From Tumidithrix helvetica PCC 7403 (GTDB taxonomy: Bacteria; Cyanobacteriota; Cyanobacteriia; Pseudanabaenales; Pseudanabaenaceae): DNA of 18,557 nucleotides. Under the pieces are notes generated by a model. The model had not been told where the DNA came from, made no database searches, and saw nothing but the letters and a program-made list of their open reading frames with translations. The stretch lies in assembly GCF_965232925.1 (NCBI RefSeq), contig NZ_CBDDRA010000001.1, forward strand, positions 128,001 through 146,557, in the 5' to 3' direction. Position 1 is the stretch's first letter. Every line of letters starts with the position of its first letter. Positions 4,466 to 18,557 of this stretch are shown here, piece by piece. Both the position numbers and the translations under genes were made by a program.

Positions 4466-5506
4466 ATGCTGAAGTCACTAAAAATCGAAAATTTTCGTTG
4501 CTTCCGATCGTTCGAGCTTCAGCAACTTGGCAGATTAAATTTGCTTGTGGGCACAAATAACAGTGGTAAAACATCAATTTTAGAAGCCATTCAACTGCTT
4601 TCTTCACGCCCAAATTTTGAGTCATTAGGAGGGTTGATGATTGGTCGTGGTGAATACATCTTAAGCAATGAAAGTGATGGGCAAATAGAGCTAGATATTC
4701 GTCATCTCTTCTATGGCAATGAAATTAATATAGGTAGTACCTTTTCGGTATTCGATAGCAGTCATGACAATGGCGAAAAAATCACTATATCTATAGAAGA
4801 AGAACAAAACCAACAAAGATCTAATTTAATTATAGAAAATTCGCGAATGAAAACAATTCTCCCCCTATCTTCCGAAGGTGGTCTTGTTTTTAACTTGAGT
4901 TACTTTAGACGCTCCCGTAAAGACTTTAAACATCCAAGTCATTTGATCACATCTTCTTCTCTGACAACCGAGACAATGATTGAGTTGTTCGATCAAGTTG
5001 TTCTTACTCCAGAAGAAGATCTTGTTACAGGAGCACTCCAGATTCTTGAACCTAATGTAGAACGTATTGCGATTATTGGCTCTGAAAAATTTAGAAAAAA
5101 TGGAGTACGTAGTGGATTTGTCGTGAGATTCTCAGATAGCGATCAACGTATACCGATTGGGAGTATGGGAGATGGAATGTGGCGAATGTTAGGACTTACA
5201 TTAGCAATTGTTAATGCTAGAAATGGGGTTTTGTTAGTTGATGAAATTGATACTGGACTTCACTTTAGTACCATGTCTAAGATGTGGAAACTAATCTGGG
5301 AAACTGCAAAACGACTTAACGTTCAAGTTTTTGCTACGACCCATAGTAATGACTGCTGGACAAGTTTGGCTGCGATCGCAAGTGCAGAAAACCCAAGCGA
5401 GGAAGGTATTACCATTCAAAGAATTGAAAAAGGAAAACCCCACAGTATTGTCTTTACGGAGCGACAAGTAGCGATCGCGGCTGAAAGAGGAATCGAGGTG
5501 CGATAG
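4466..5506 (+). CDS. ABC/AAA_21-type P-loop ATPase (RecF/SMC-like, OLD/AbiL/PARIS-AriA class): Walker A GTNNSGKTS, Walker B LLVDEID, H-loop ATTHS.
   Basis: Motifs read from the translation. Strong AAGGAG-less start but a clean ATG. Codon usage is AT-rich and HIP1 is almost absent, unlike the neighbouring genes. Confidence 0.8.
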   Translation: MLKSLKIENFRCFRSFELQQLGRLNLLVGTNNSGKTSILEAIQLLSSRPNFESLGGLMIGRGEYILSNESDGQIELDIRHLFYGNEINIGSTFSVFDSSHDNGEKITISIEEEQNQQRSNLIIENSRMKTILPLSSEGGLVFNLSYFRRSRKDFKHPSHLITSSSLTTETMIELFDQVVLTPEEDLVTGALQILEPNVERIAIIGSEKFRKNGVRSGFVVRFSDSDQRIPIGSMGDGMWRMLGLTLAIVNARNGVLLVDEIDTGLHFSTMSKMWKLIWETAKRLNVQVFATTHSNDCWTSLAAIASAENPSEEGITIQRIEKGKPHSIVFTERQVAIAAERGIEVR

Positions 5507-5509
5507 AGA

Positions 5510-6160
5510 ATGGCTAATATCCATCCAAAGATTCTGTTGGTAGAGGGTAAGCAAGATGTGCGGGTCATACCAGAGCTAATTGAAGCAAATGGTGTGGATT
5601 GGGGAACAAGGAAAAGTCCGATCGTATATATTCGTGATTGTGATGGCTATCAAAAGTTAGTCGATCCAGATGTAATCTCGACGGAACTACAGGCTTCTGG
5701 ACTTTCTGCACTTGGCATCATAGTTGATGCAGATGATAATCCTCAAGGGCGTTGGCAGAGTATCAGAAGTGCAAGCATTAGAAGTATCCCCGATCTTCCA
5801 GAAGCTTTACCAGAAGAAGGTTTGATTCATATTACCCCTAGTGGAATTAAGTTTGGAGTATGGATGATGCCAGACAACAAGATGCGCGGTATGTTAGAAA
5901 CTTTTTTGACATACCTGATCCCAGATGGGAATGAATCAATTTGGCAGTTTGCTCAAAAATCAGCCCTAGAAGCCAAAAATAAGGGGGCGATGTTTACGGA
6001 TGCTCATGGTGACAAAGCAAATATTTATACTTGGCTCGCTTGGCAAGATCCGCCAGGACGGCAACTACATCAAGCAATTATGGAACGCCTTTTAGATCCA
6101 AATCATCCCAATGCTCAAATGTTCGTGACATGGTTTAAAGCTTTGTATGGCTTACCTTAA
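5510..6160 (+). CDS. Small partner protein with TOPRIM-like signatures: N-terminal strand with a conserved Glu (ILLVEGKQD) and a later acidic DxD-type motif (GIIVDADDN). DUF4276 / RloB / AriB-like predicted nuclease.
   Basis: The start codon lies 4 nt after the ATPase stop (tagAGAatg), implying translational coupling. E...DxD spacing is typical of TOPRIM. The family assignment is by recollection, not a search. Confidence 0.6.
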   Translation: MANIHPKILLVEGKQDVRVIPELIEANGVDWGTRKSPIVYIRDCDGYQKLVDPDVISTELQASGLSALGIIVDADDNPQGRWQSIRSASIRSIPDLPEALPEEGLIHITPSGIKFGVWMMPDNKMRGMLETFLTYLIPDGNESIWQFAQKSALEAKNKGAMFTDAHGDKANIYTWLAWQDPPGRQLHQAIMERLLDPNHPNAQMFVTWFKALYGLP

Positions 6161-7293: not shown

Positions 7294-8739
7294 ATGGTTC
7301 AGGCGAAAAGTCCCAGCTTCACAAGAGAAGATTGGCAGAAGGGCTATCAATCTTTACGTACCGAGCAGAGTTACTGGATCGATGAGATTGAGGGGGAGAT
7401 TCCATCAGAATTACAAGGCACGCTGTTTCGGAATGGACCTGGTTTGCTCGATGTCAACGGTCAAGCTTACGGACACCCCTTTGATGGTGACGGCATGATC
7501 TGCGCGATCGCTTTTACCGATGGCAAAGCCCACTTCGCCAATAGCTTTGTCAAAACTCCCGAATTTCTTGCCGAGCAAAAAGAGGGGCGCATTCTCTATC
7601 GTGGTGTCTTTGGGACGCAAAAGCCGGGGGGCTGGTGGCAAAATCTGTTCGATCTCAAACTCAAGAATATCGCCAATACCAACGTTATCTACCACGGGAA
7701 GAGGCTTTTGGCTTTATGGGAGGCTAGCTTACCCTATCGACTCGATCCTAAAAACCTTGATACGCTTGGGGTAGAAACATTTAATGGGGCTTTAGCAGCA
7801 GGAAAGGCATTCACAGCGCATCCTAGACTCGATCCTGAGACTGGAGATCTCTGGGCTTTTGGAGTCGATGCAGGTCCAAAGTCAACCATTACGATCTATA
7901 GGATCGATCCTCAAGGCGAACTTACGGAATCTTGCAGTCAAAAAGTGTCGGGATTCTGCTTTTTACATGATTTTGCTTACACCCCTAACTACCGCATCTT
8001 TTTACAGAATCCCGTCTCGTTTGATTCCTTGCCATTTATCTTTGGCTTGAAAACCGCAGGGGCTTGTATCGATCTCAAACCCAATACACCGACAAAAATT
8101 CTGTTGTTCGATCGCTCGGGCAAACTGACAACCCTAGAAACCGACCCCGGATTTGTGTTTCACCACTGCAATGCCTTTGAACGAGGGGATGAAATCATCC
8201 TAGATTCGGTGTGCTATCAGGACTATCCCAAGCTAGAACCCAATGTTGACTATAAGAATGTGAATTTTGACACCGTTGTACCTGGGAAACTTTTCCGCTT
8301 TCGGATTAATCCCAAGACGGGCAGCGTCAGCCGTGAAATTTTGCTCGATCGCTCCTGTGAATTTCCGACAATTCATCCGCGCTGTGTGGGGCAACCTTAC
8401 CGCTATGCCTATATCGGCGCGATCGCCCAGCCCACAGGCAATGCCCCACTCCAAGCAATTCTCAAAATCGACCTAGAAACGGGCAAACAAGAAGCACATA
8501 GCTTTGCCCCAAGGGGCTTTATCGGAGAGCCTGTGTTTGTGCCGCGCAATGCCTCAGCTACGAGTGCTGAAGATGATGGCTGGATTATTACATTGATCTT
8601 TAATGCTGAGCGCGATCGCTCTGATGTCGTTATTCTCGACGCTCAAAATATCGCGGCTGCACCTGTGGCAACCTTGCACCTAAAACACCATGTCCCCTAT
8701 GGATTGCATGGCAACTTCACGCCCGAAGTCTGGCATTAA
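7294..8739 (+). CDS. Carotenoid cleavage oxygenase (RPE65 family; apocarotenoid-15,15'-oxygenase-like).
   Basis: FRNGPG...HPFDGDGM motif, conserved His residues (HHCNAFE, etc.), length about 480 aa. Confidence 0.85.
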   Translation: MVQAKSPSFTREDWQKGYQSLRTEQSYWIDEIEGEIPSELQGTLFRNGPGLLDVNGQAYGHPFDGDGMICAIAFTDGKAHFANSFVKTPEFLAEQKEGRILYRGVFGTQKPGGWWQNLFDLKLKNIANTNVIYHGKRLLALWEASLPYRLDPKNLDTLGVETFNGALAAGKAFTAHPRLDPETGDLWAFGVDAGPKSTITIYRIDPQGELTESCSQKVSGFCFLHDFAYTPNYRIFLQNPVSFDSLPFIFGLKTAGACIDLKPNTPTKILLFDRSGKLTTLETDPGFVFHHCNAFERGDEIILDSVCYQDYPKLEPNVDYKNVNFDTVVPGKLFRFRINPKTGSVSREILLDRSCEFPTIHPRCVGQPYRYAYIGAIAQPTGNAPLQAILKIDLETGKQEAHSFAPRGFIGEPVFVPRNASATSAEDDGWIITLIFNAERDRSDVVILDAQNIAAAPVATLHLKHHVPYGLHGNFTPEVWH

Positions 8740-8852: not shown

Positions 8853-8920
8853 GCCCCCTAGCCCCCAATTCTGGGGAAGGATTCTTAAAGTTCCCCAGAA
8901 TTGGGGGATTTAGGGGGCTA
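8853..8920. repeat. Copy 1 of a C5/G5-rich palindromic dispersed element (GCCCCCTAGCCCCCAATTCTGGGGAA-loop-TTCCCCAGAATTGGGGGATTTAGGGGGC), intergenic between the convergent oxygenase and rpmF genes.
   Basis: A stem of about 26 bp with one bulge, read directly. Shares the CCCCC-YRG-CCCCC terminal motif with the elements at 16251 and 17788. Confidence 0.7.
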
Positions 8921-9826: not shown

Positions 9827-10738
9827 ATGACCAACACCCAGCTACCACAAGTAACCCAGCCGCTCAAATATGCCTATTATCCGGGTTGCGTTGCCAAAGG
9901 GGCTTGCAAAGAATTACATGCTTCGACCATTGCGATCGCAGCAGCTTTGGAAATTGAATTGGTGGAACTGCATCAGGCTTCCTGCTGCGGCTCAGGCACC
10001 TTTAAAGAAACCGACGAGCTGATGGAAGACACCGTAAATGCGCGGAATATTAGTTTGGCAGAAGAACTCAAACTTCCCCTGATGACTCAATGCAGTACCT
10101 GCCAAGGCGTGCTTGGGCGCGTGAATGACAAATTGAAGTTCACAGATTCAGCGCGACGTGACGAAGTGAATGAATTCCTCGGTGCTGAAGGACGGCATTT
10201 TCAAGGAACCACGGAAGTTCTGCACCTGTTATGGATTTTGATTCGCGATTATGGTATAGAACGACTACAACAGAAAGTGAAGCGTCCGCTCACAGCGCTT
10301 AAATGTGCTTCCTTTTATGGTTGTTACCTCCTCCGCGCCCAGACTGTGACTCGTTTTGACGATCCTTACAAGCCAGAATCCCTAGAGAAGGTATTTCGCG
10401 CCCTCGGCGCTACACCCGTCTATTACGAAGGGCGCGTGCAATGCTGCGGCTGGCCGATTTCTAGCTATGCTACCAATGCTTCATTTTCCATGGCAGGAAG
10501 ACATCTATCGGCAGCGATCGCTGCTGGAGCAGACTGCATTGTCACGCCTTGCCCCCTATGCCACTTAAATCTTGATTCGCGTCAACCAGAAGTGGAGAAA
10601 GTTATTGGACAAAAGTTGGGAATCCCGATTTTGCATCTACCGCAGTTAATAGGACTGGCTTTGGGCATCGATCCCGTTACGTTAGGATTGAATCGCCACA
10701 TTGTCTCAACCGTTCCCATTCTTAGGATTTTGATCTAG
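9827..10738 (+). CDS. HdrB-like protein with two cysteine-rich CCG domains (heterodisulfide reductase subunit B / GlcF / archaeal-type SdhE family).
   Basis: YYPGCvakgaCkE...CCGSG and ...CCGWP...CPLCHLN match the two-CCG-domain pattern. Confidence 0.75.
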   Translation: MTNTQLPQVTQPLKYAYYPGCVAKGACKELHASTIAIAAALEIELVELHQASCCGSGTFKETDELMEDTVNARNISLAEELKLPLMTQCSTCQGVLGRVNDKLKFTDSARRDEVNEFLGAEGRHFQGTTEVLHLLWILIRDYGIERLQQKVKRPLTALKCASFYGCYLLRAQTVTRFDDPYKPESLEKVFRALGATPVYYEGRVQCCGWPISSYATNASFSMAGRHLSAAIAAGADCIVTPCPLCHLNLDSRQPEVEKVIGQKLGIPILHLPQLIGLALGIDPVTLGLNRHIVSTVPILRILI

Positions 10739-10779: not shown

Positions 10780-12084
10780 ATGACCCCAGATGAATTTCTC
10801 GCTAGCTTTGGTAAATTTGGGATTCATCTGGGGCTGGAACGAATCGCTCAGCTTTTAGCAGATCTAGGAAACCCACACCAGAGATTTCCTGTGATTCATG
10901 TGGCGGGAACCAATGGCAAAGGTTCTGTCTGTGCTTACATTTCCTCTATTTTAGAGATGGCTGGCTATCGGGTCGGTCGGTATATTTCGCCGCATTTGGT
11001 CGATTGGCGAGAACGTATTTGTATAAATTCCGAATGGATTGCTTCAGAAGATTTGTTGAACGCACTGATGCAGGTCAAGCAAGCGATTCAGCCCCAACAT
11101 CCACCCACGCAGTTTGAAGCGATCACCGCTGCGGCTTGGTGGTATTTTGCCGATCGCCAAGTTGATGTCGCTGTGATTGAAACAGGGTTAGGTGGCAGAT
11201 TAGATGCTACCAATGTATGCGATCGCCCTCTAGTCTCGGTCATTACATCCATTAGTATGGAACACTGGCAGCGGTTGGGCTCCACCCTAGCAGCGATCGC
11301 ATCCGAAAAAGCCGGAATCATTAAACCCTCCTGCCCTGTCGTGATTGGGGAACTGCCTCCTGAAGCCGCTGCTGTCATGCTAGACAAAGTGGAAGCGAAT
11401 CACTGTCCCGTTACCTGGGTTCGTGCCGCTACCGAAATGCAGCCTACAGCATTCAATTCAGGATCTACACTAGACTCAAGCCTAGAGAATTTAGCAGTAT
11501 GGGAAGGGATTACCTATCCTTTGCCGCTTTTAGGCAAACATCAGTTGATTAATTCCGCGATCGCGCTCGGAACTATCCAAACGCTAAGAACGCAGGGTTG
11601 GGAAATTCCCGAGTCCGCCGTGACAGAAGGAATGCGGCGAACCCAATGGTTGGGAAGATTGCAATGGGTGGAATATCAACGTTTCGTTGGTGGGCAAAAA
11701 AGAACGCATAAACTATTGATCGATGGAGCCCATAATGTCGCTGCGGCTGAATACCTGCGCGAGTTTGTCGATCGCATCTTCCCAAACCAACCTAGATGCT
11801 GGGCGATCGGTATGCTAGACACCAAAGATCACCTTGGCATTCTCAAAGCTTTATTAAATCCCCAAGATAGACTGATTACTGTGCCTGTCCCTTTTCACCA
11901 GACTGCCGACCCAGAGATGCTTGCAAAGTTGGGGACGACAATCGTAAAAGAAACTCCAAGAGCCTATCCCGCTCTGGAATCAGGACTAGATGCGGCTTTC
12001 TGCGAGTATGAATCTCAGCATTATCCAGTCATCCTATGCGGTTCTCTCTATCTGATCGGGCAGTTTCTTAGCAAAGCCACATGA
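10780..12084 (+). CDS. folC: Folylpolyglutamate synthase / dihydrofolate synthase.
   Basis: P-loop VIHVAGTNGKGSV and the Mur-ligase-family motifs (YISPHL, IETGLGGRLDATN). Confidence 0.9.
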   Translation: MTPDEFLASFGKFGIHLGLERIAQLLADLGNPHQRFPVIHVAGTNGKGSVCAYISSILEMAGYRVGRYISPHLVDWRERICINSEWIASEDLLNALMQVKQAIQPQHPPTQFEAITAAAWWYFADRQVDVAVIETGLGGRLDATNVCDRPLVSVITSISMEHWQRLGSTLAAIASEKAGIIKPSCPVVIGELPPEAAAVMLDKVEANHCPVTWVRAATEMQPTAFNSGSTLDSSLENLAVWEGITYPLPLLGKHQLINSAIALGTIQTLRTQGWEIPESAVTEGMRRTQWLGRLQWVEYQRFVGGQKRTHKLLIDGAHNVAAAEYLREFVDRIFPNQPRCWAIGMLDTKDHLGILKALLNPQDRLITVPVPFHQTADPEMLAKLGTTIVKETPRAYPALESGLDAAFCEYESQHYPVILCGSLYLIGQFLSKAT

Positions 12085-12258
12085 TCCATTGTACGCCCAA
12101 TGTTTTGCCTCAAAATTCTTATCAGGAACTCATTTGCAAATAGAATCCATTCGAGATTCTTTGCAACCTCAAAAGATTTAGGGATTTACGTCTGTTGCCT
12201 ATGATATATTTTGGAAACTTTTGGGCATAATTCATGTCTTACCTCACTAAGATGTTTG

Positions 12259-12272
12259 ATCGATGCATCGAT
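12259..12272. promoter_or_regulatory. Perfect 14-bp palindrome ATCGATGCATCGAT, 47 nt upstream of the start codon of the secreted-protein gene. Candidate operator.
   Basis: Palindrome read directly; the function is inferred only. Confidence 0.3.
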
Positions 12273-12318
12273 TACAAATATCCTGAGGTTGTGGCGATCG
12301 GGAGTTAAGGAAATTATC

Positions 12319-13167
12319 ATGCTGAAATTGCAGTCTAGTCAGGTCTTCTTTTTCGTGCCGATCGTGCTAACTGCCGCTATCAGTCTTGAAGCTGTTGCTC
12401 AAGTTTCAGTGGTTCTACCCGCAAAAACCTGCCAACAACTTGGACCGAGAAATTATGTGGTTCTAGTGAATCGACCAGGCAATCTACTCCCTCAGTTACC
12501 AGAATTTTTAGCAATTTCTGCCATCCCCTGCGGCTATATGGCAAACTCCATCACTTTTTTTGGTAATTTCAACAATCTCAATGCGGCTTCCTATCGAGCC
12601 GAGCAACTGAGACAAATTGGACTAGATGCGATCGTGCATTCTTTTGCACTTGATAATGCTCAAATCTCTCCCAATTTACGAGGAGCCTCTGTCATTGTCG
12701 AACCTAATGCCGATCCAAATCTAGCGTTACAACAAGTCCAAGCTGCCACGAATTCCCACACGCAACTGGTCAATTTTGCGAATCGCCAAGTTGTTTTAGC
12801 CTCGCCTTTATCGAGTTTTCAGGTGGCAAATACGATCGCATCAAACCTGCGCAGTCGTGGCTTTGCTTCTCAGGCAGTCAGTGCTAGTTTGGTTAGTCAG
12901 CCCAATGCGCCAACCAGCACGGTTGCGCCCCCTGTATCAACGCCCAATGATTCCAGCGCTACCAAAAAAACATTTCGCGTGTTAGTGCCCGAGTTGAATC
13001 AAGCTACCTTGGGGTACGTGAGAGCGATCGCTTCCGATGCTTTTCCTCGTTCTTATCAGGGACGCAGGTATATCCAAGCTCGTACCTACACCGATCTGTC
13101 TAATGCTACCCGCGAACGCGATCGCTTTAATATTCGCTTCCCAGGCACGATTATCATTAGTGAATAA
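12319..13167 (+). CDS. Secreted hypothetical protein with three SPOR-like repeats. The ATG at 12319 is preferred over the track's 12211.
   Basis: GGAGttAAGGAAattatcATG is a strong RBS-start context. A signal peptide follows immediately (MLKLQSSQVFFFVPIVLTAAISLEAVAQ). The 36 codons upstream of 12319 look non-coding. The SPOR call is weak. Confidence 0.6.
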   Translation: MLKLQSSQVFFFVPIVLTAAISLEAVAQVSVVLPAKTCQQLGPRNYVVLVNRPGNLLPQLPEFLAISAIPCGYMANSITFFGNFNNLNAASYRAEQLRQIGLDAIVHSFALDNAQISPNLRGASVIVEPNADPNLALQQVQAATNSHTQLVNFANRQVVLASPLSSFQVANTIASNLRSRGFASQAVSASLVSQPNAPTSTVAPPVSTPNDSSATKKTFRVLVPELNQATLGYVRAIASDAFPRSYQGRRYIQARTYTDLSNATRERDRFNIRFPGTIIISE

Positions 13168-13258: not shown

Positions 13259-13870
13259 ATGCAGCGCTCTTCACAGGTAGAAATCAGCAATCCCTCAACC
13301 GCATGGCATCGCATTATCAATCCGATTTGGCAGGGTAGTGCCGATGAAATTAGTAAGGGCTTACCCTTCAACCAGATGTCCCCCCATTGGCAGATGTTTT
13401 TGCTGGGTGATGGCGCACCCACCCGCCATTTACAGCTACTCACCCAGTCAGAGATCGTGGTTGATGTGATTGCCATGACACCGATTGGCTATGACGACGA
13501 TCTTGCCCCCGCTGCGATCGCGGCAATTCCTGCCCCACGAACCCGTCGCCAAATTTGGCTACGCTGTGCGAAAACGGGTGAGGTTTTGTCTCATGCCACA
13601 TCATGGTGGTCTACGGCGCAAATCGATCGCTATCTTACCGATCCATCCCTACCGATCTGGGCAAGCCTCAATCAAAAACATACCGAGCTATACCGAGACT
13701 TACAAGGTATTTCTAAAGGGGCAAGTCCCGGACTGGTCAAAACCTTTGGTCAGCCCGAAACCTATTGGGGACGGCATTATCTTCTGTGGCATGGTGGTAA
13801 GCCTTTAACCCTAATTTACGAAATTTATGCGCCTGCGATCGCCAAATATCTCGGACCAAGCAGCCTGTAA
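13259..13870 (+). CDS. ubiC: Chorismate pyruvate-lyase (UbiC / Ycf21, DUF98 family).
   Basis: The C-terminal block [26 protein letters not shown] parallels E. coli UbiC [39 protein letters not shown] parallels LLLEDSMTKRFEQ. Confidence 0.75.
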   Translation: [203 protein letters not shown]

Positions 13871-13894: not shown

Positions 13895-15241
13895 TTGAAC
13901 GCTGAAATTGCTAGGATACGGGTATCGCTCTGGATGTACGGCATGGATCTCGAACTTTCCCGTTTTCTCAAGGCTTGTAACCCCACCCATCCTCTTGATG
14001 CGAGTAATCCAGAGGATCTCAGCTATTATGTCGATCTCTCGTCAGTGCGTGGGGCTGAGTTGATTAAAAGTTTGAAACGGACGATCGCTGTGATTTCGCC
14101 CGATGAGGCAACTTGTCAGTTATTTACGGGGCATATTGGCTGCGGCAAATCAACGGAATTATTGCGACTGAAGAACGAACTAGAAAAGCAAAAGTTTCAC
14201 GTTGCCTATTTTGAGTGCGACAAGCAGCTTGAGTTGAGCGATGTCGATGCTAGCGACGTGTTGCTGGCGATCGCGGGGCAAATTAGTGAGGGACTTGAGA
14301 AGGAAAATATCAGCATCGTTTCCGCATATTTCACAAAGTTATTTGGCGAGCTGAAAGATTTGCTGCAAACCAAGGTCGAGCTGAATGCAAATTTTAAACT
14401 ATCGGTTGGAATTGCCGAAATTACCGCTCAAGCAAAACACAGTCAATCGTTGCGTCGTCAGATTCACGAACGTTTAGAATCACGGACAAACAGCATTATT
14501 ACAGCGATTAATAACGAGTTGTTAAAACCAGCACGAGAAAAGTTAAAAGCAAAGGGCATGAAGGGATTGGTGGTGATTGTGGATAACCTCGATCGCATTG
14601 AAAATCGCATCGACCCTAAAGAACAATCGCGGGCGGGATATCTATTTGTGGAACGGGGCGATCAGTTGCGGGGCTTAGATTGCCATCTGGTCTATACGGT
14701 TCCCTTACTGCTGACCTTCTCGAATGATGCGGCGATCGTTACGGGTCGGTTTGGTACGGAAATTAAGACGCTACCGATGATTCCTGCGCGTTTAGCTGAT
14801 GGGAGTGAATGTGAAGAGGGAATGGCACTATTGCGACAGATCGTGATGGCAAGGGCATTTCCGACGCTTAGCCCCTTGCAAAGGATTGAGGATGTCCATG
14901 TTAAAGCTGTATTTGATTCGCCGCAAACGCTCGATCGCTTGTGTCAGGTGAGTGGAGGGCACGTTCGCAATCTATTTCGGTTTCTGCTGGGTTGTTTGCA
15001 GCAGGACGATCCGCCGATTTCGGCGAGTTTGCTAGAAAGTATCATTGCCAACGAACGCAATAAAATGCGTAAGATTATTACGGATGATGAATGGGAATTG
15101 ATTCGGAAGGTGCATCAGGATAAGCGGCTGAGCGGAGAAGCGCAGTATCAGATGCTGATTAAGAGCCAATTTGTGTTTGAGTATGAATATCAAGGGAATG
15201 GTTGGTTTGATTGCAATCCGATTTTAGATAAACTGTTATAG
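13895..15241 (+). CDS. P-loop NTPase of unknown family (Walker A TGHIGCGKST, Walker B LVVIVDNLD), 448 aa, immediately upstream of the giant NTPase-WD40 gene.
   Basis: Motifs read directly. The track start is a TTG; the real start may be the ATG at 13934 or 13943. Confidence 0.7.
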   Translation: MNAEIARIRVSLWMYGMDLELSRFLKACNPTHPLDASNPEDLSYYVDLSSVRGAELIKSLKRTIAVISPDEATCQLFTGHIGCGKSTELLRLKNELEKQKFHVAYFECDKQLELSDVDASDVLLAIAGQISEGLEKENISIVSAYFTKLFGELKDLLQTKVELNANFKLSVGIAEITAQAKHSQSLRRQIHERLESRTNSIITAINNELLKPAREKLKAKGMKGLVVIVDNLDRIENRIDPKEQSRAGYLFVERGDQLRGLDCHLVYTVPLLLTFSNDAAIVTGRFGTEIKTLPMIPARLADGSECEEGMALLRQIVMARAFPTLSPLQRIEDVHVKAVFDSPQTLDRLCQVSGGHVRNLFRFLLGCLQQDDPPISASLLESIIANERNKMRKIITDDEWELIRKVHQDKRLSGEAQYQMLIKSQFVFEYEYQGNGWFDCNPILDKLL

Positions 15242-15257
15242 GCATCTCGGCTACATC

Positions 15258-18200
15258 ATGGACGAGGAAATCGCATCCACTGCCACGCTCAACCAAAACT
15301 CTCTCAGGCTACTGAAGCGAGTCGCCACCAACGCGCAGGGATTTTCGCTGTCGATCGCTTTGTGTAACTATCGATCGCTGCAAAACCGTTACTTGGCAGA
15401 ATTAACAGCGCAATTGCCCGATCGGGCAATTGCCACAATCGAATTGGAACCCGATGCGACGACATTGCTGACACTGGTTCAGGATTTGATGGAGACGGTC
15501 GCACACGAACCGCCAGAGCGTCAGCCTAAGGTATTGATGGTATTGGGGCTAGAAGAGGTCAAAGATGTTTCTGCGGTACTGCAATCAGCAAATCGCGTGC
15601 GGGAAGAATTTGCCAACTGCCTAGATTTTCCGATGGTGCTCTGGCTCAACGATCGTACGCAGGATATTCTGACTCGCGATGCTAGCGATTTGGCGAACTG
15701 GGTAACAGCGGGGGCGCTCGAGTTTCGGTTTACGCCTGCGGAACTCGTGGGGTTTTTGCGCGAAACTACGGAATCGCTGTTTGCGAGATTTCTCAATCCT
15801 GAAACCGATGGGATGTTTCGCGGGGGGGCGATCGCCAAGGGCTTGCAAAAATTTGAGCTTGAGACCGCCGTGAAGGAGTTACAAGCCTCTGGGCAAGTTC
15901 TCAATCCCGAACTCGCGGCAAATTTGGATTTTGCCTTTGGGTTTTGCGCTTTATTGGAGAAGGAATTCGCCTCAGCAAAGCAGTCGTTTGGCAAGAGTTT
16001 GGAGGTTTGGCGTGGGAGGAACGCGCTAAAGCAGGCGGCTTGTTTGTTTCAGGTCGGGGTGTGCGATCGCACAGTAGCATTTCACCGTCGCTATGATAAG
16101 GTTCCGTTTTATCGCCTTGCGAGGGAGAGTTTTGCCGAAGCAATCGCGATTTTTCGAGATTTGGGGCGATCGGATTTGGTGGCAGAGTATCTTAATTTTT
16201 TGATGGCTGTGGTGGAGGATTTGGCACGGTTGGATAGGGATTTGAAGAGATCCCCCCCAGCCCCCCTTAATAAGGGGGGAGAATTTATTAGGGGTAAAGA
16301 GTTATTTGAGGAATTGGAGGGGTTGGCGCGGGAGGCGTTGGGACTGCGGCAGCGGTATCCAAATTTGTTGAAGGAGGCGCACGATCGCGGCATGATGGCG
16401 GCGGTAAAGATTGCGTTTGGGGAATATGTCGAGGCGCAGCAGTTTGCGGAGGGGGCACTGGCGCTATATCGAGAGGCGGAGAGGCAGCAGTTGCCCAATT
16501 TGGCTTGGACGCGACGTTATATCTATGGGCTGTATGAGATTTGGTTGGCGCGAGCTTTGGCAGGGCAGGGCAAGAGGGCAGAGGCGATCGCGGGTTTAGA
16601 GGGGGTGCGATCGCAGTGGCGGCATCAGTACGACGCGCAGATCTATGTGGGGGTGCTGGAAGAGTTGCGATCGCAATACACGCAGGCGGGGCGCTATCTC
16701 GATGCCTTTCATACAAAGCAGCACCAGCGATCGGTGGAGCAGCAGTATGGGTTGCGGGCGTTTATCGGGGCGGGAATGCTGCATCCCAGTCGGGAGGAGG
16801 TCGATCCTGCGACGGCGGCGATCGCGTTGCGGCAACCCGATGGCATTGCGGTGGAAATCGTGGCATCGGGCAGAAAGCAAAATGTGGAGGAACTGGTGGA
16901 ACGGATTCGCCAGCCGCGCTATCCCTTGACGGTGATTCATGGGGATTCGGGGGCGGGAAAGAGTTCGATTTTGAATGGTGGGGTCGTGCCTGCGTTGCGA
17001 TCGCGGGAAACGTTGGATGGTCGCAAGGTGCTGGTGTTGACGGTAAATACCTATAAGGAATGGAGTCGCGAGATTGAGCGGCAGTTGCAGGAGTTTTTTG
17101 GTGGTGCGCGTCCCGAGTTGAATCCGATCGAGCATTTTAAGCGCAATGTTGAGGAGAACTATCTGACCGTGTTGGTGTTCGATCAGTTTGAGGATTTCTT
17201 TTTTAAAAAGGAGGATTTTGCCGATCGCTTGCCGTTTTACAAATTCCTGAGAGCCTGTTTGCATACGGATTTTGTCCGAGTGGTGCTGTCGCTGCGCGAG
17301 GACTATCTGCATTATTTATTGGAATGCGATCGCGCCGTGAATCTAGAAAAGGTCGAGAACGATATTCTCGGCAAGCAGATTCGCTATTATTTGGGCGATT
17401 TTACGCCAGAGGAGGCAAGGCGGGTGATTGAGTCGCTGACGGCAAGGGCGGAGGTGAAGCTGGATGCGGATCTGTGCGATCGCTTGGTGGTGGATTTGAC
17501 GGGCGATCGGGGTAGGGTGTTGCCGATTGAGTTGCAGGTAGCGGGGGCGCAACTAGAGTCTGAGGAACCACAAATTTCGACGTTGGCGCAATATTTGGCA
17601 TTGACAAGCGATGTCTCGCAGCGTAAACCCAGTGAGGTTTTAGTGGAGCGCTGGCTAGAGAATGTGGTGAAGGATTGTGGCGAGGGAAATCAAGAGTTGG
17701 CGCAAAGGGTGCTGTACGCGTTGACGGGAATGGAGGAGAAGCGACCGCAAAAAACGCAGGAGGAATTGGCGGCTGAGTTACTGACATCTCCCCCTGCCCC
17801 TCTCCTAAAAGGCGAGGGGAGTAAGAATGAGTCTTTGCTCCCCCTCTCCCATGGGGAGAGGGGGCTGGGGGGAGATGTCAATCTCGAACTGGTGCTGGCG
17901 GTTTTGGTGGGGTCGGGTTTGGCGTTTCGGGTGAGCAGTACGCCAGAGGATCGCTATCAGTTGATTCACGATTATCTGACGGGCTTTATACGGAAGAAGT
18001 ATGGGATTGATGTGAATGCTGAGTTGAGAAAAGAGCGGAAGCGGCGGGAATTGGCGGAACTGGCAAGAGAACAGGCGGAAAAAGAGAAGGAGATATTTGC
18101 AGTTGCGAATCGTAAAGCTGGACAAAGAGTTCGGATCGGTTCAATTATTTTAGGAATTGCATCTATTGCTGCGATCGGAATTAGCATTTATGCAAGCAAA

Positions 18201-18557
18201 GCATTTCAGGCTTCGCAAGAAGCCATAGCGATCACGCAAATCGAAAAACAGAGTGCTGAAGCGGAGAGACTATTTAAAACCCAAGAATTCCAAGCACTTC
18301 TACCCGCAATGAGAGCGACAAAACTGTTAAAGGCGATCGTCAAGGATTCAATGCATACCGAACAATATCCTTCTGTTAGTCCTCTTGGGGCTTTGCAATT
18401 AATTTTGAGAGATGGACAAGAACGCTTACAATTTCGGGCAACTGGTATTGTATTTTCGCCCGATGGTACGAAGCTGGCGACGAGTGGCAGTGACGGCACG
18501 GCTAGGATTTGGGATCTACAGGGCAACCAGATTGCGATTCTCAAAGGGCATCAAGGG
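15258..18557 (+). CDS. Large NLR-like multidomain protein, 3'-truncated at the window end (at least 1100 aa). An N-terminal domain of unknown function is followed by TPR-like helices, a STAND-class P-loop NTPase (Walker A VIHGDSGAGKSSIL; Walker B LTVLVFDQFEDFFF) and a helical region. A coiled coil (ELRKERKRRELAELAREQAEKEKE) and a predicted TM helix (VRIGSIILGIASIAAIGISIYA) come next, then the first WD40 repeat (IVFSPDGTKLATSGSDGTARIWDLQG).
   Basis: Hand translation in frame 0 from the ATG at 15258, 17 nt after the upstream stop, to nt 18557 found no stop; the frame was re-checked at 15597, 16551, 16938, 17163, 17820, 18090 and 18528. The frame-0 stop at 15225 precludes an earlier start. The ORF track does not list it because it has no in-window stop. 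The minus-strand ORFs listed here (RRRRR / PPP-rich) are antisense artefacts. Confidence 0.8.
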   Translation, partial: MDEEIASTATLNQNSLRLLKRVATNAQGFSLSIALCNYRSLQNRYLAELTAQLPDRAIATIELEPDATTLLTLVQDLMETVAHEPPERQPKVLMVLGLEEVKDVSAVLQSANRVREEFANCLDFPMVLWLNDRTQDILTRDASDLANWVTAGALEFRFTPAELVGFLRETTESLFARFLNPETDGMFRGGAIAKGLQKFELETAVKELQASGQVLNPELAANLDFAFGFCALLEKEFASAKQSFGKSLEVWRGRNALKQAACLFQVGVCDRTVAFHRRYDKVPFYRLARESFAEAIAIFRDLGRSDLVAEYLNFLMAVVEDLARLDRDLKRSPPAPLNKGGEFIRGKELFEELEGLAREALGLRQRYPNLLKEAHDRGMMAAVKIAFGEYVEAQQFAEGALALYREAERQQLPNLAWTRRYIYGLYEIWLARALAGQGKRAEAIAGLEGVRSQWRHQYDAQIYVGVLEELRSQYTQAGRYLDAFHTKQHQRSVEQQYGLRAFIGAGMLHPSREEVDPATAAIALRQPDGIAVEIVASGRKQNVEELVERIRQPRYPLTVIHGDSGAGKSSILNGGVVPALRSRETLDGRKVLVLTVNTYKEWSREIERQLQEFFGGARPELNPIEHFKRNVEENYLTVLVFDQFEDFFFKKEDFADRLPFYKFLRACLHTDFVRVVLSLREDYLHYLLECDRAVNLEKVENDILGKQIRYYLGDFTPEEARRVIESLTARAEVKLDADLCDRLVVDLTGDRGRVLPIELQVAGAQLESEEPQISTLAQYLALTSDVSQRKPSEVLVERWLENVVKDCGEGNQELAQRVLYALTGMEEKRPQKTQEELAAELLTSPPAPLLKGEGSKNESLLPLSHGERGLGGDVNLELVLAVLVGSGLAFRVSSTPEDRYQLIHDYLTGFIRKKYGIDVNAELRKERKRRELAELAREQAEKEKEIFAVANRKAGQRVRIGSIILGIASIAAIGISIYASKAFQASQEAIAITQIEKQSAEAERLFKTQEFQALLPAMRATKLLKAIVKDSMHTEQYPSVSPLGALQLILRDGQERLQFRATGIVFSPDGTKLATSGSDGTARIWDLQGNQIAILKGHQG
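16251..16281 (+). repeat. Copy 2 (short form) of the C5/G5 palindromic element, TCCCCCCCAGCCCCCCTTAATAAGGGGGGAG, inserted in frame in the large NTPase gene and encoding SPPAPLNKGGE.
   Basis: The palindrome CCCCCCTTA-A-TAAGGGGGG read directly; the reading frame is preserved. Confidence 0.6.
17788..17874 (+). repeat. Copy 3 (long form, two hairpins) of the C5/G5 palindromic element, inserted in frame in the large NTPase gene and encoding SPPAPLLKGEGSKNESLLPLSHGERGLGGD.
   Basis: Hairpin 1 is CCCCTCTCC-TAAAA-GGCGAGGGG. Hairpin 2 is CCCCCTCTCCC-ATG-GGGAGAGGGGG (11-bp perfect stem). Terminal motifs are TCCCCCTGCCCC and GGGGGCTGGGGGGA. Same frame and orientation as copy 2. Confidence 0.7.

Follow-up and report, generated by a model that had tools for sequence, protein, structure and literature searches.

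To our knowledge, the bacterial STAND immune proteins characterised so far each consist of one cytoplasmic polypeptide that bears its own nuclease, protease or NADase, and the Avs and bNACHT proteins are said to be antiviral STAND proteins. Here we describe a two-gene locus that contrasts with this pattern: it has no such enzyme and usually combines a membrane-spanning receptor with a separate, strongly conserved AAA+ ATPase. The locus lies at the end of an 18,557-nucleotide stretch of DNA (the window) from the cyanobacterium Tumidithrix helvetica PCC 7403 and consists of a gene for a small AAA+ ATPase, followed by the 5' part of a gene for a large protein with an nSTAND1 NTPase and C-terminal WD40 repeats. 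From sequence comparisons we hold, with moderate confidence, that the pair is probably an NLR-like two-component module of the immune or cell-death type in which the AAA+ ATPase would serve as the dedicated output partner.

A related layout has already been catalogued. In the source data of Kaur et al. 2021 (eLife), 'nSTAND1+TM+BetaPropeller' (TM, transmembrane) is listed 278 times, and 'TIR+DrHyd-> nSTAND1+TM+BetaPropeller', with the effector gene upstream, is a frequent theme. Our pair shares with these systems the NTPase family, the order of NTPase, TM helix and propeller, and a partner gene directly upstream. It differs in that the upstream gene there encodes a TIR/DrHyd enzyme and here an AAA+ ATPase, and in that those proteins begin with a caspase, EAD or Death-like domain whereas the large protein begins with an undescribed α/β domain and TPRs. 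The pair itself appears incidentally in the same tables, as '<-TPR+nSTAND1+BetaPropeller<-AAA_22' in two Nostoc genomes beside caspase/bDLD3 genes; in the main-text passages that bear on the family, nSTAND1 is mentioned once and the pair is not described. An earlier reading of the window, made from its letters alone (the sequence-only reading), had called the pairing of a dedicated small NTPase with an NLR-like protein unusual; it is less so than supposed, since the nSTAND1+TM+β-propeller layout with an upstream partner gene was already on record. Literature searches on nSTAND1, Hat, KAP+WD40 and transmembrane STAND topics returned no paper describing the pair, and the obligate AAA+ partner, the family of the α/β domain, and the wide and stable occurrence of the pair in cyanobacteria seem to be undescribed in the searchable literature.

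Like the Avs and bNACHT proteins, the large protein has a putative N-terminal output region, a central STAND switch and a C-terminal repeat sensor, and ligand-triggered oligomerisation is proposed here as well. It belongs to another NTPase clade, however, lacks a nuclease, protease or TIR domain, and comes with a TM helix, a probable extracytoplasmic sensor and an obligate partner ATPase. From the Apaf-1/CED-4 apoptosome it differs in having nSTAND1 rather than NB-ARC, another adaptor rather than CARD, and a membrane anchor; a caspase is recruited there and, by our proposal, an ATPase here. The features of the pair are as follows.

13943-15241, + strand: small AAA+ ATPase gene, 432 aa, with, as modelled, an ORC/Cdc6/TnsC/STAND-like fold, a KAP-like Walker B and a C-terminal winged helix
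14129-14155, + strand: Walker A GHIGCGKST, aa 63-71, invariant in 44 homologs except for the nearly invariant H64
14570-14596, + strand: Walker B VVIVDNLDR, aa 210-218, by motif position
14684-14704, + strand: candidate sensor 1 HLVYTVP, from its position in the secondary structure of the AlphaFold2 (AF2) model
14744-14755, + strand: candidate arginine finger GRFG, placed in the same way
14951-14971, + strand: putative Cdc6-like sensor 2 SGGHVRN, placed in the same way
15242-15257, + strand: intergenic spacer of 16 nt, without a terminator-like site
15258-18557, + strand: first 3.3 kb (5' part) of the large nSTAND1 gene, 1100 codons without a stop up to the end of the window and contig
15279-15725, + strand: N-terminal α/β domain, aa 8-156, modelled by AF2 as a helix and then five strand-helix units, without a P-loop
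15840-16745, + strand: TPR superhelix, aa 195-496, modelled by AF2
16251-16286, + strand: palindromic G/C-rich insert in a TPR loop (SPPAPLNKGGEF; CCCCCCTTAATAAGGGGGG), in frame, with low model confidence at aa 330-343 (predicted local distance difference test, pLDDT)
16869-17783, + strand: nSTAND1 NTPase module, aa 538-842 (Pfam PF20703, E 7.9e-31)
16941-16967, + strand: Walker A GDSGAGKSS, aa 562-570
17169-17195, + strand: Walker B VLVFDQFED, aa 638-646
17782-17880, + strand: 99-nt in-frame palindromic element, like a miniature inverted-repeat transposable element (MITE), encoding ...PPAPLLKGEGSKNESLLPLSHGERGLGGD..., with 23-nt inverted-repeat arms
18009-18197, + strand: charged helix, aa 918-957, a likely coiled coil as read from the sequence, then the TM helix
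18135-18197, + strand: single TM helix, aa 960-980, IGSIILGIASIAAIGISIYAS, 21 residues, Kyte-Doolittle 19-residue mean 2.12
18432-18557, + strand: first WD40 repeat, aa 1059-1100 (Pfam WD40 at aa 1062-1086)

The frame at 15258-18557 on the + strand had been missed by the program-made list of open reading frames (ORFs) and was picked out by the sequence-only reading, which named an overlooked in-frame stop as one possible refutation. Translation gave 1100 codons with zero stops, so the frame is open as claimed, and it is missing from the list because ORFs running off the source are not listed. The ATG at 15258 is the sole possible start, since an in-frame TAG lies at 15225-15227 and no ATG, GTG or TTG occurs in between. 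The products of both window genes are 100% identical to NCBI entries of PCC 7403 (P0001 for the small protein and P0121 for the large one); P0121 is named 'WD40 repeat domain-containing protein, partial' and ends a 429-kb contig. The window end is this contig end, and an independent Logan contig of the same locus breaks at nearly the same point. Both contigs stop within the first WD40 repeats, and the large protein of the window is thus partial, with its C-terminus beyond; the terminal WD40 region announced by the sequence-only reading is present, although just one repeat (aa 1059-1100) falls inside the window. For the small gene, the mechanical ORF runs from a TTG at 13895 to 15241 (stop codon 15239-15241) and encodes the 448 aa first reported, but the ortholog N-termini and the recorded gene call favour the ATG at 13943 and a product of 432 aa. 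In a look-up of exact products the 432-aa form was matched, and the 448-aa (TTG) form and the 435-aa form from the first ATG were not. The spacer between the genes measures 16 nt (15242-15257), one fewer than the 17 nt first counted. Promoter and terminator scans of the window gave no signal above chance, and an Rfam search of the window gave no match.

Computation shows that the two genes are inherited as a pair across cyanobacteria. When one genome was scanned for each species, relatives of the small ATPase turned up in at least 584 species, and the best 80 loci were fetched. Of the 74 loci whose downstream DNA was long enough, 70 have a homolog of the large protein (N-terminal and nSTAND1 parts) following on the same strand, among them loci of Pseudanabaena, Nostoc, Microcoleus, Coleofasciculus, Moorena, Laspinema and Calothrix. 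When the search was reversed from two large-protein homologs, the upstream gene was the small ATPase in both. The linkage in other genomes on which the sequence-only reading had made its proposal depend therefore exists. The commonest estimate of the intergenic spacing in the orthologous loci is about 30 nt, and on the Acaryochloris plasmid pREB2 there is an overlap of 4 nt; judged from the sequence, the two genes form one operon. Among the linked loci no third gene is conserved beside the pair across genera, so that the minimal unit is two genes, and flanking genes are kept only within genera, for example ftsQ/ftsZ at 20 Microcoleus loci.

The four loci of the 74 without an adjacent partner (L021, L027, L042 and L046; Microcoleus/Oscillatoriales) carry a 442-aa subtype of the ATPase, about 51-54% identical, and the partner is absent within 10 kb for these loci. 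Coleofasciculus PCC 7420 (L083) also lacks the partner. A transposase lies a few kb downstream in the examined exception locus and in PCC 7420; at L042 the small ATPase is followed by shikimate dehydrogenase and a DDE transposase. The genome JAYTZD01 holds one orphan small ATPase and one linked copy. As a separate observation, three unrelated loci (L088 7422-8036, L092 11229-11930 and L093 13761-14402) have Uma2-family (PF05685) genes immediately or a short way downstream of the pair, which may be coincidence, the family being much expanded in cyanobacteria.

The AF2 model of the small protein, computed with 44 homologs, has a pLDDT of 89 and a predicted template modelling score (pTM) of 0.88. 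It consists of an AAA+ core, in which a helical insert separates Walker A from Walker B, a lid and a C-terminal winged helix, and as modelled the AAA+ ATPase is intact and bears this winged helix. In the alignment of the 44 homologs, D214, N215, L216, D217, R218, R269, G271, G338, G339, H340 and R342 are invariant, as is a threonine after strand 4; R269 precedes strand 5. Given the invariant residues in Walker A, Walker B, R269 and SGGHVRN, among others, we predict that the protein is active and oligomerises, the motif roles being assigned by inference. The motifs quoted in the sequence-only reading, GHIGCGKST and VVIVDNLD here and GDSGAGKSS and a DQFED-type Walker B in the large protein, are all present.

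Pfam gave weak generic matches for the small ATPase, to AAA_22, ATPase_2, NPHP3_N and KAP_NTPase. The last of these (PF07693) scores 24.9 bits against a cut-off of 20, a small margin, over aa 57-237 of the 448-aa form, and the orthologs carry a precomputed PF07693 assignment. KAP NTPases have TM helices inserted in the P-loop domain and a Walker B motif that reads DDLDR. The small ATPase resembles them (PifA; RADAR RdrA) in its DNLDR Walker B and in the helical insert between Walker A and B, but the insert (aa 128-203) is modelled as soluble helices and reaches a maximum 19-residue hydropathy of 1.36, which indicates no TM helix; neither a deaminase nor any other RADAR partner accompanies it. 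A canonical KAP identity was rejected for want of TM helices, and the protein is better called KAP-like. With ORC/Cdc6/TnsC proteins it would share a putative Cdc6-like sensor 2, SGGHVRN, and, as modelled, the winged helix, and KAP NTPases and ORC/Cdc6/TnsC initiator-type AAA+ proteins are probably its closest relatives. Compared with solved structures at the level of sequence profiles it had no match, and hhalign against the large protein aligned the P-loops alone. Its family comprises 708 clusters (50% identity) at E<=1e-30 and 3805 at E<=1e-3, and Pseudanabaenaceae and Nostocales members are 51-56% identical. Membership of a housekeeping family, named beforehand in the sequence-only reading as a refutation, was looked for, and the protein belongs to none.

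In the large protein Pfam recognised nSTAND1, a weak TPR_12 and one WD40 repeat. The central STAND NTPase seen by the sequence-only reading is nSTAND1 (PF20703, 108.5 bits against a cut-off of 27.1); orthologs including P0176 also match PF20703, and the Walker A and B motifs are nearly invariant in the ortholog alignment. The likeness then drawn to NLR-related and Avs-type proteins stands as far as an NLR-like STAND protein is concerned and fails for Avs, NACHT and NB-ARC: Pfam found no NACHT or NB-ARC match in the large protein, and the one PADLOC hit was an insignificant 18-residue P-loop match to PbeC (E 0.0037). Nor did the effector-like N-terminus hold up, the N-terminal 530 aa being an uncharacterised α/β domain and TPRs with no recognisable effector. 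The AF2 model of aa 1-541 has a pLDDT of 82, and the strand order of the α/β domain suggests a degenerate AAA+-like or a flavodoxin-like fold. Neither a profile search of PDB sequences nor Pfam run on 19 members matched this domain, and with hhalign its profile could not be related to that of the small ATPase. Most full-length orthologs measure about 1550-2020 aa and have about 14 WD40 repeats (14 WD40 matches in P0123), and some genomes carry shortened or frameshifted copies of the gene. Orthologs that seemed to lack WD40 were rejected as an artefact of the pattern search, the repeats having been confirmed in them.

A TM helix separates the NTPase from the WD40 region in 42 of 55 full-length orthologs. 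Its flanks contain on average more lysine and arginine on the N-side (3.7) than on the C-side (2.0), with net charges of +2.7 and +0.5, and by the positive-inside rule this bias predicts the NTPase inside and the WD40 repeats outside. Computed in this way, most orthologs of the large protein cross the membrane once, with cytoplasmic α/β, TPR and nSTAND1 parts and about two WD40 propellers. The large protein might even be an 'outside-in' NLR in which a periplasmic or thylakoid-lumen WD40 sensor, an α/β adaptor and an ORC-like AAA+ executor act in series, a logic not known from characterised NLRs of bacteria, plants or animals; we regard this as doubtful. Candidate cues for such a receptor would be phage adsorption or injection machinery, a damaged cell wall, or, within filaments, a signal from a neighbour cell or from non-self.

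Several family members with 39-48% identity to the small ATPase of the window occur in fusions. P0280 is a small ATPase fused to TIR_2, and in Nostoc sp. CALU 1950 (L088 1-7400) it stands second in the order small ATPase, small ATPase-TIR, N-domain fragment, N-domain+TPR+nSTAND1. P0297 joins CHAT and TRADD-N to the ATPase in an ArdA/UvrD mobile-element context; P0244, P0252 and P0285 are fusions to STAND-like NTPases; and P0241, P0245 and P0249 combine SAV_2336_NTERM with the ATPase (E down to 1e-154). P0241 lies downstream of EAD10-VMAP-C and MoxR and adjoins caspase and EAD10-NACHT genes. The passages of Kaur et al. 2020 (PMC7159879) that treat ternary systems give the gene order VMAP, MoxR, vWA, with variable effector modules at the vWA component's C-terminal end; the order and position of P0241 match this variable effector position, one of several lines that tie the small-ATPase family to the NTP-dependent conflict systems described by Aravind's group, a kind of system met in multicellular bacteria. 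The likeness to the MoxR-vWA-VMAP systems is that the SAV_2336_NTERM proteins have as their C-terminal module a domain with 45-48% identity to the small ATPase. The pair differs in having no MoxR, vWA or VMAP gene beside it, in the window or the 70 linked loci, and in that its ATPase stands as a protein of its own, coupled to a STAND receptor. Copies of the pair also reside on plasmids of Acaryochloris, Calothrix and Nostoc. The pREB2 copy is flanked by HicAB, RelE/ParE, integrases and a NACHT gene, and Nostoc sp. UHCC 0302 has copies on four records, three plasmids and the chromosome (P0083).

The α/β domain of the large protein also occurs outside the pair. A free-standing form of about 164 aa is found on many cyanobacterial contigs (for example L094-L097 7001-7495; P0424, P0446, P0457, P0468 and P0478), where in the loci examined it adjoins an RlaP-family gene and has no small ATPase near it; the family is unnamed and without a Pfam model. 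In P0260 the domain is fused to a small-ATPase paralog within the same operon as a full-length large protein, and a three-gene operon at L090 480-8800 runs small ATPase, N-domain-small ATPase, full large protein. This syntax is that of effector-associated adaptor domains, and an adaptor-like role is suggested for the domain by its free-standing form and its partner-fused copy.

The sensor region evolves in a manner of its own. The WD40 units of the orthologs, each of 41 aa, share 67-82% identity among themselves, with the variation concentrated at few positions, and this close likeness explains why assemblies break in the WD40 region. When the T. helvetica large protein was compared for mosaicism with P0123, P0122 and P0125, its identity to the T. 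elongata protein was 91-96% over aa 1-905 and 22% over aa 906-1058. The latter segment (17973-18431, TM helix and linker) is 73-74% identical to proteins that are only 54-58% identical in their N-terminal parts. The break at aa 905/906 indicates that a C-terminal sensor cassette was exchanged by recombination. Fungal HNWD/HET-E proteins are alike in their WD40 units (67-82% here), in the small number of variable positions and in sensor exchange between close relatives; they differ in having NACHT where the large protein has nSTAND1, and the repeat region here is conserved among Microcoleus species.

Two in-frame insertions lie inside the large gene, the G/C-rich palindrome at 16251-16286 and the 99-nt element at 17782-17880, which has a fold energy of -72.7 kcal/mol (z -6.9). 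Orthologs carry differing inserts of the same kind and of variable length at the same two loops, and the palindromes look like small mobile repeats tolerated in surface loops. Separately, positions 15001-18000 have a G+C content of 0.51-0.55 and a GC skew of +0.22 to +0.30, against about 0.40-0.49 and a skew near 0 in the rest of the window; the high G+C and skew of the large gene account for many spurious antisense ORFs (80-238 aa) at 15521-18544. Of the HIP1 octamer (GCGATCGC) the window contains 33 copies, where shuffles lead one to expect 0.36.

If the pair is the NLR-like module that we favour, the WD40 propellers would bind a ligand, outside the cytoplasm in the TM-bearing forms by the positive-inside rule, and binding would release the nSTAND1 switch to allow nucleotide exchange and oligomerisation. 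The clustered α/β-TPR platforms would then recruit or activate the small AAA+ ATPase as the output module, a role proposed by analogy because the ATPase gene occupies the upstream position held by the TIR+DrHyd effector gene in Kaur et al. 2021. In the canonical pair the ATPase would act alone, perhaps by forming ATP-dependent oligomers on DNA or some other target, and in some lineages the same ATPase bears a TIR or CHAT/TRADD-N effector. The expected outcome would be growth arrest or cell death upon infection or contact with non-self. Were the ATPase the output, it would represent an executor or helper of a new kind for NLR-like receptors and offer a way into two unnamed domain families, that of the small ATPase and that of the α/β domain; were the WD40 region truly extracytoplasmic, the pair would offer a tractable case of NLR-type sensing across a membrane.

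A number of observations weigh against this immune-type reading. Neither protein of the canonical pair has an enzymatic effector recognisable by Pfam or PADLOC, and PADLOC gave for the small ATPase only a weak partial match to the candidate system PDC-S20 (E 1e-7, 30 bits), which spans aa 64-218 against model positions 48-197 of 464 and is not full-length. The order of the partners in signalling is read from gene position and fusions. In Pseudanabaena a sizeable clade, to which the closest relative belongs, is without the TM helix, so the compartment of sensing must vary. The visible neighbours in the window are housekeeping genes (chorismate lyase, FolC and HdrB-like), and the two genes contain 10 copies of HIP1, a density about equal to that of the rest of the window, which suggests long residence in the genome. 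In 15 Microcoleus species the pair occupies one fixed locus beside ftsQ/ftsZ with all parts, WD40 included, 92-96% identical, and there it looks like a stable resident gene under purifying selection and not like an arms-race locus. Defence and non-defence STAND clades are interspersed (PMC13581612). Searches of phage and viral collections found no relative, a result that we list here although it is neutral on defence either way.

The best-surviving alternative is a non-immune module in which a membrane receptor would sense a periplasmic, cell-wall or environmental cue and act on the ORC/Cdc6-like winged-helix AAA+ protein, with altered DNA transactions or transcription as the output, for example in development, stress or cell-cell communication along the filament. 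We consider it possible, at tentative confidence. It fits the 51-56% identity of the small ATPase between Pseudanabaenaceae and Nostocales, the fixed Microcoleus synteny at ftsQ/ftsZ with its 92-96% identity through the WD40 repeats, the housekeeping context and native HIP1 density of the window, and the lack of an enzymatic effector in the pair. The modelled fold of the ATPase, nearest to DNA-binding initiator-type AAA+ proteins and with a C-terminal winged helix, points the same way, as do distant actinobacterial nSTAND1-WD40 proteins, which their SARP/BTAD, XRE, sigma-70 or cyclase N-termini mark as regulators, and the commonness of non-defence STAND clades (PMC13581612). It sits poorly with the close ATPase relatives that are fused to TIR or to CHAT+TRADD-N or fill the effector position of VMAP/MoxR systems, and with the plasmid copies beside toxin-antitoxin and integrase genes, one strain having copies on four replicons. 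The swapping of the sensor cassette between close species, the high internal identity of the WD40 repeats, which is the NLR-type pattern, and the shortened or frameshifted copies in some genomes also speak against it. Should the module nevertheless be a non-immune regulator, it would be among the few widely shared signalling modules of filamentous cyanobacteria without an assigned function.

An unlikely variant keeps the pair as a conflict system and places the ATPase upstream, as a chaperone or threshold switch, with killing through membrane damage by the clustered TM helices or through unlinked effectors. The canonical small ATPase does lack an effector domain, it is the most conserved part of the pair, which suits a machine part better than an effector, and the TM helix is available in 42 of 55 orthologs; AAA+ chaperones, including MoxR in ternary systems, are moreover proposed as thresholding switches in the relevant passages of Kaur et al. 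2020. The orthologs without a TM helix nonetheless retain the partner ATPase, so the helix is not the general effector, and the fold is of the ORC/STAND type with a winged helix and not a classical unfoldase ring with pore loops. Related loci, too, put TIR or CHAT on the same ATPase or place it in the vWA effector position, and other nSTAND1+TM+propeller operons have an upstream effector gene, TIR+DrHyd. Finally, that the adjacency is meaningless, or that the large gene is the 'Hat/HatR' high-affinity carbon-uptake WD-repeat protein of some annotations, is highly improbable: WD40 proteins are many in cyanobacteria (PMC5587647) and four loci and Coleofasciculus PCC 7420 have the ATPase with no adjoining partner, but the 70 of 74 linked loci span orders with otherwise different flanks and largely refute chance, the genes overlap or lie close together in most loci, domain fusions join both families, and the Hat label is an inherited name found also on a Flavobacteriales nSTAND1+TM fragment.

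The visible housekeeping neighbours upstream of the pair in the window are as follows.

9827-10738: HdrB-like protein
10780-12084: FolC
13259-13870: chorismate lyase

Between FolC and chorismate lyase, 12211-13167 on the + strand holds an ORF of 318 aa (282 aa in the Logan record) that has no match in Pfam, NCBIfam or PADLOC. About 8 kb upstream of the pair, with housekeeping genes between, PADLOC recognised a candidate phage-defence pair, PDC-M38, at 4466-6160 on the + strand; PDC-M38A is an AbiLi/AriA-like AAA_15/AAA_21 ATPase (E 1e-93) and PDC-M38B a DUF3226 protein (E 2e-75). Downstream of an RPE65-like gene (7294-8739), positions 8862-8907 form a perfect 17-nt inverted repeat (CCCCCAATTCTGGGGAA ... 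TTCCCCAGAATTGGGGG) with a 12-nt loop, which precedes the ribosomal protein L32 gene (minus strand, Logan gene call) and may be a terminator hairpin.

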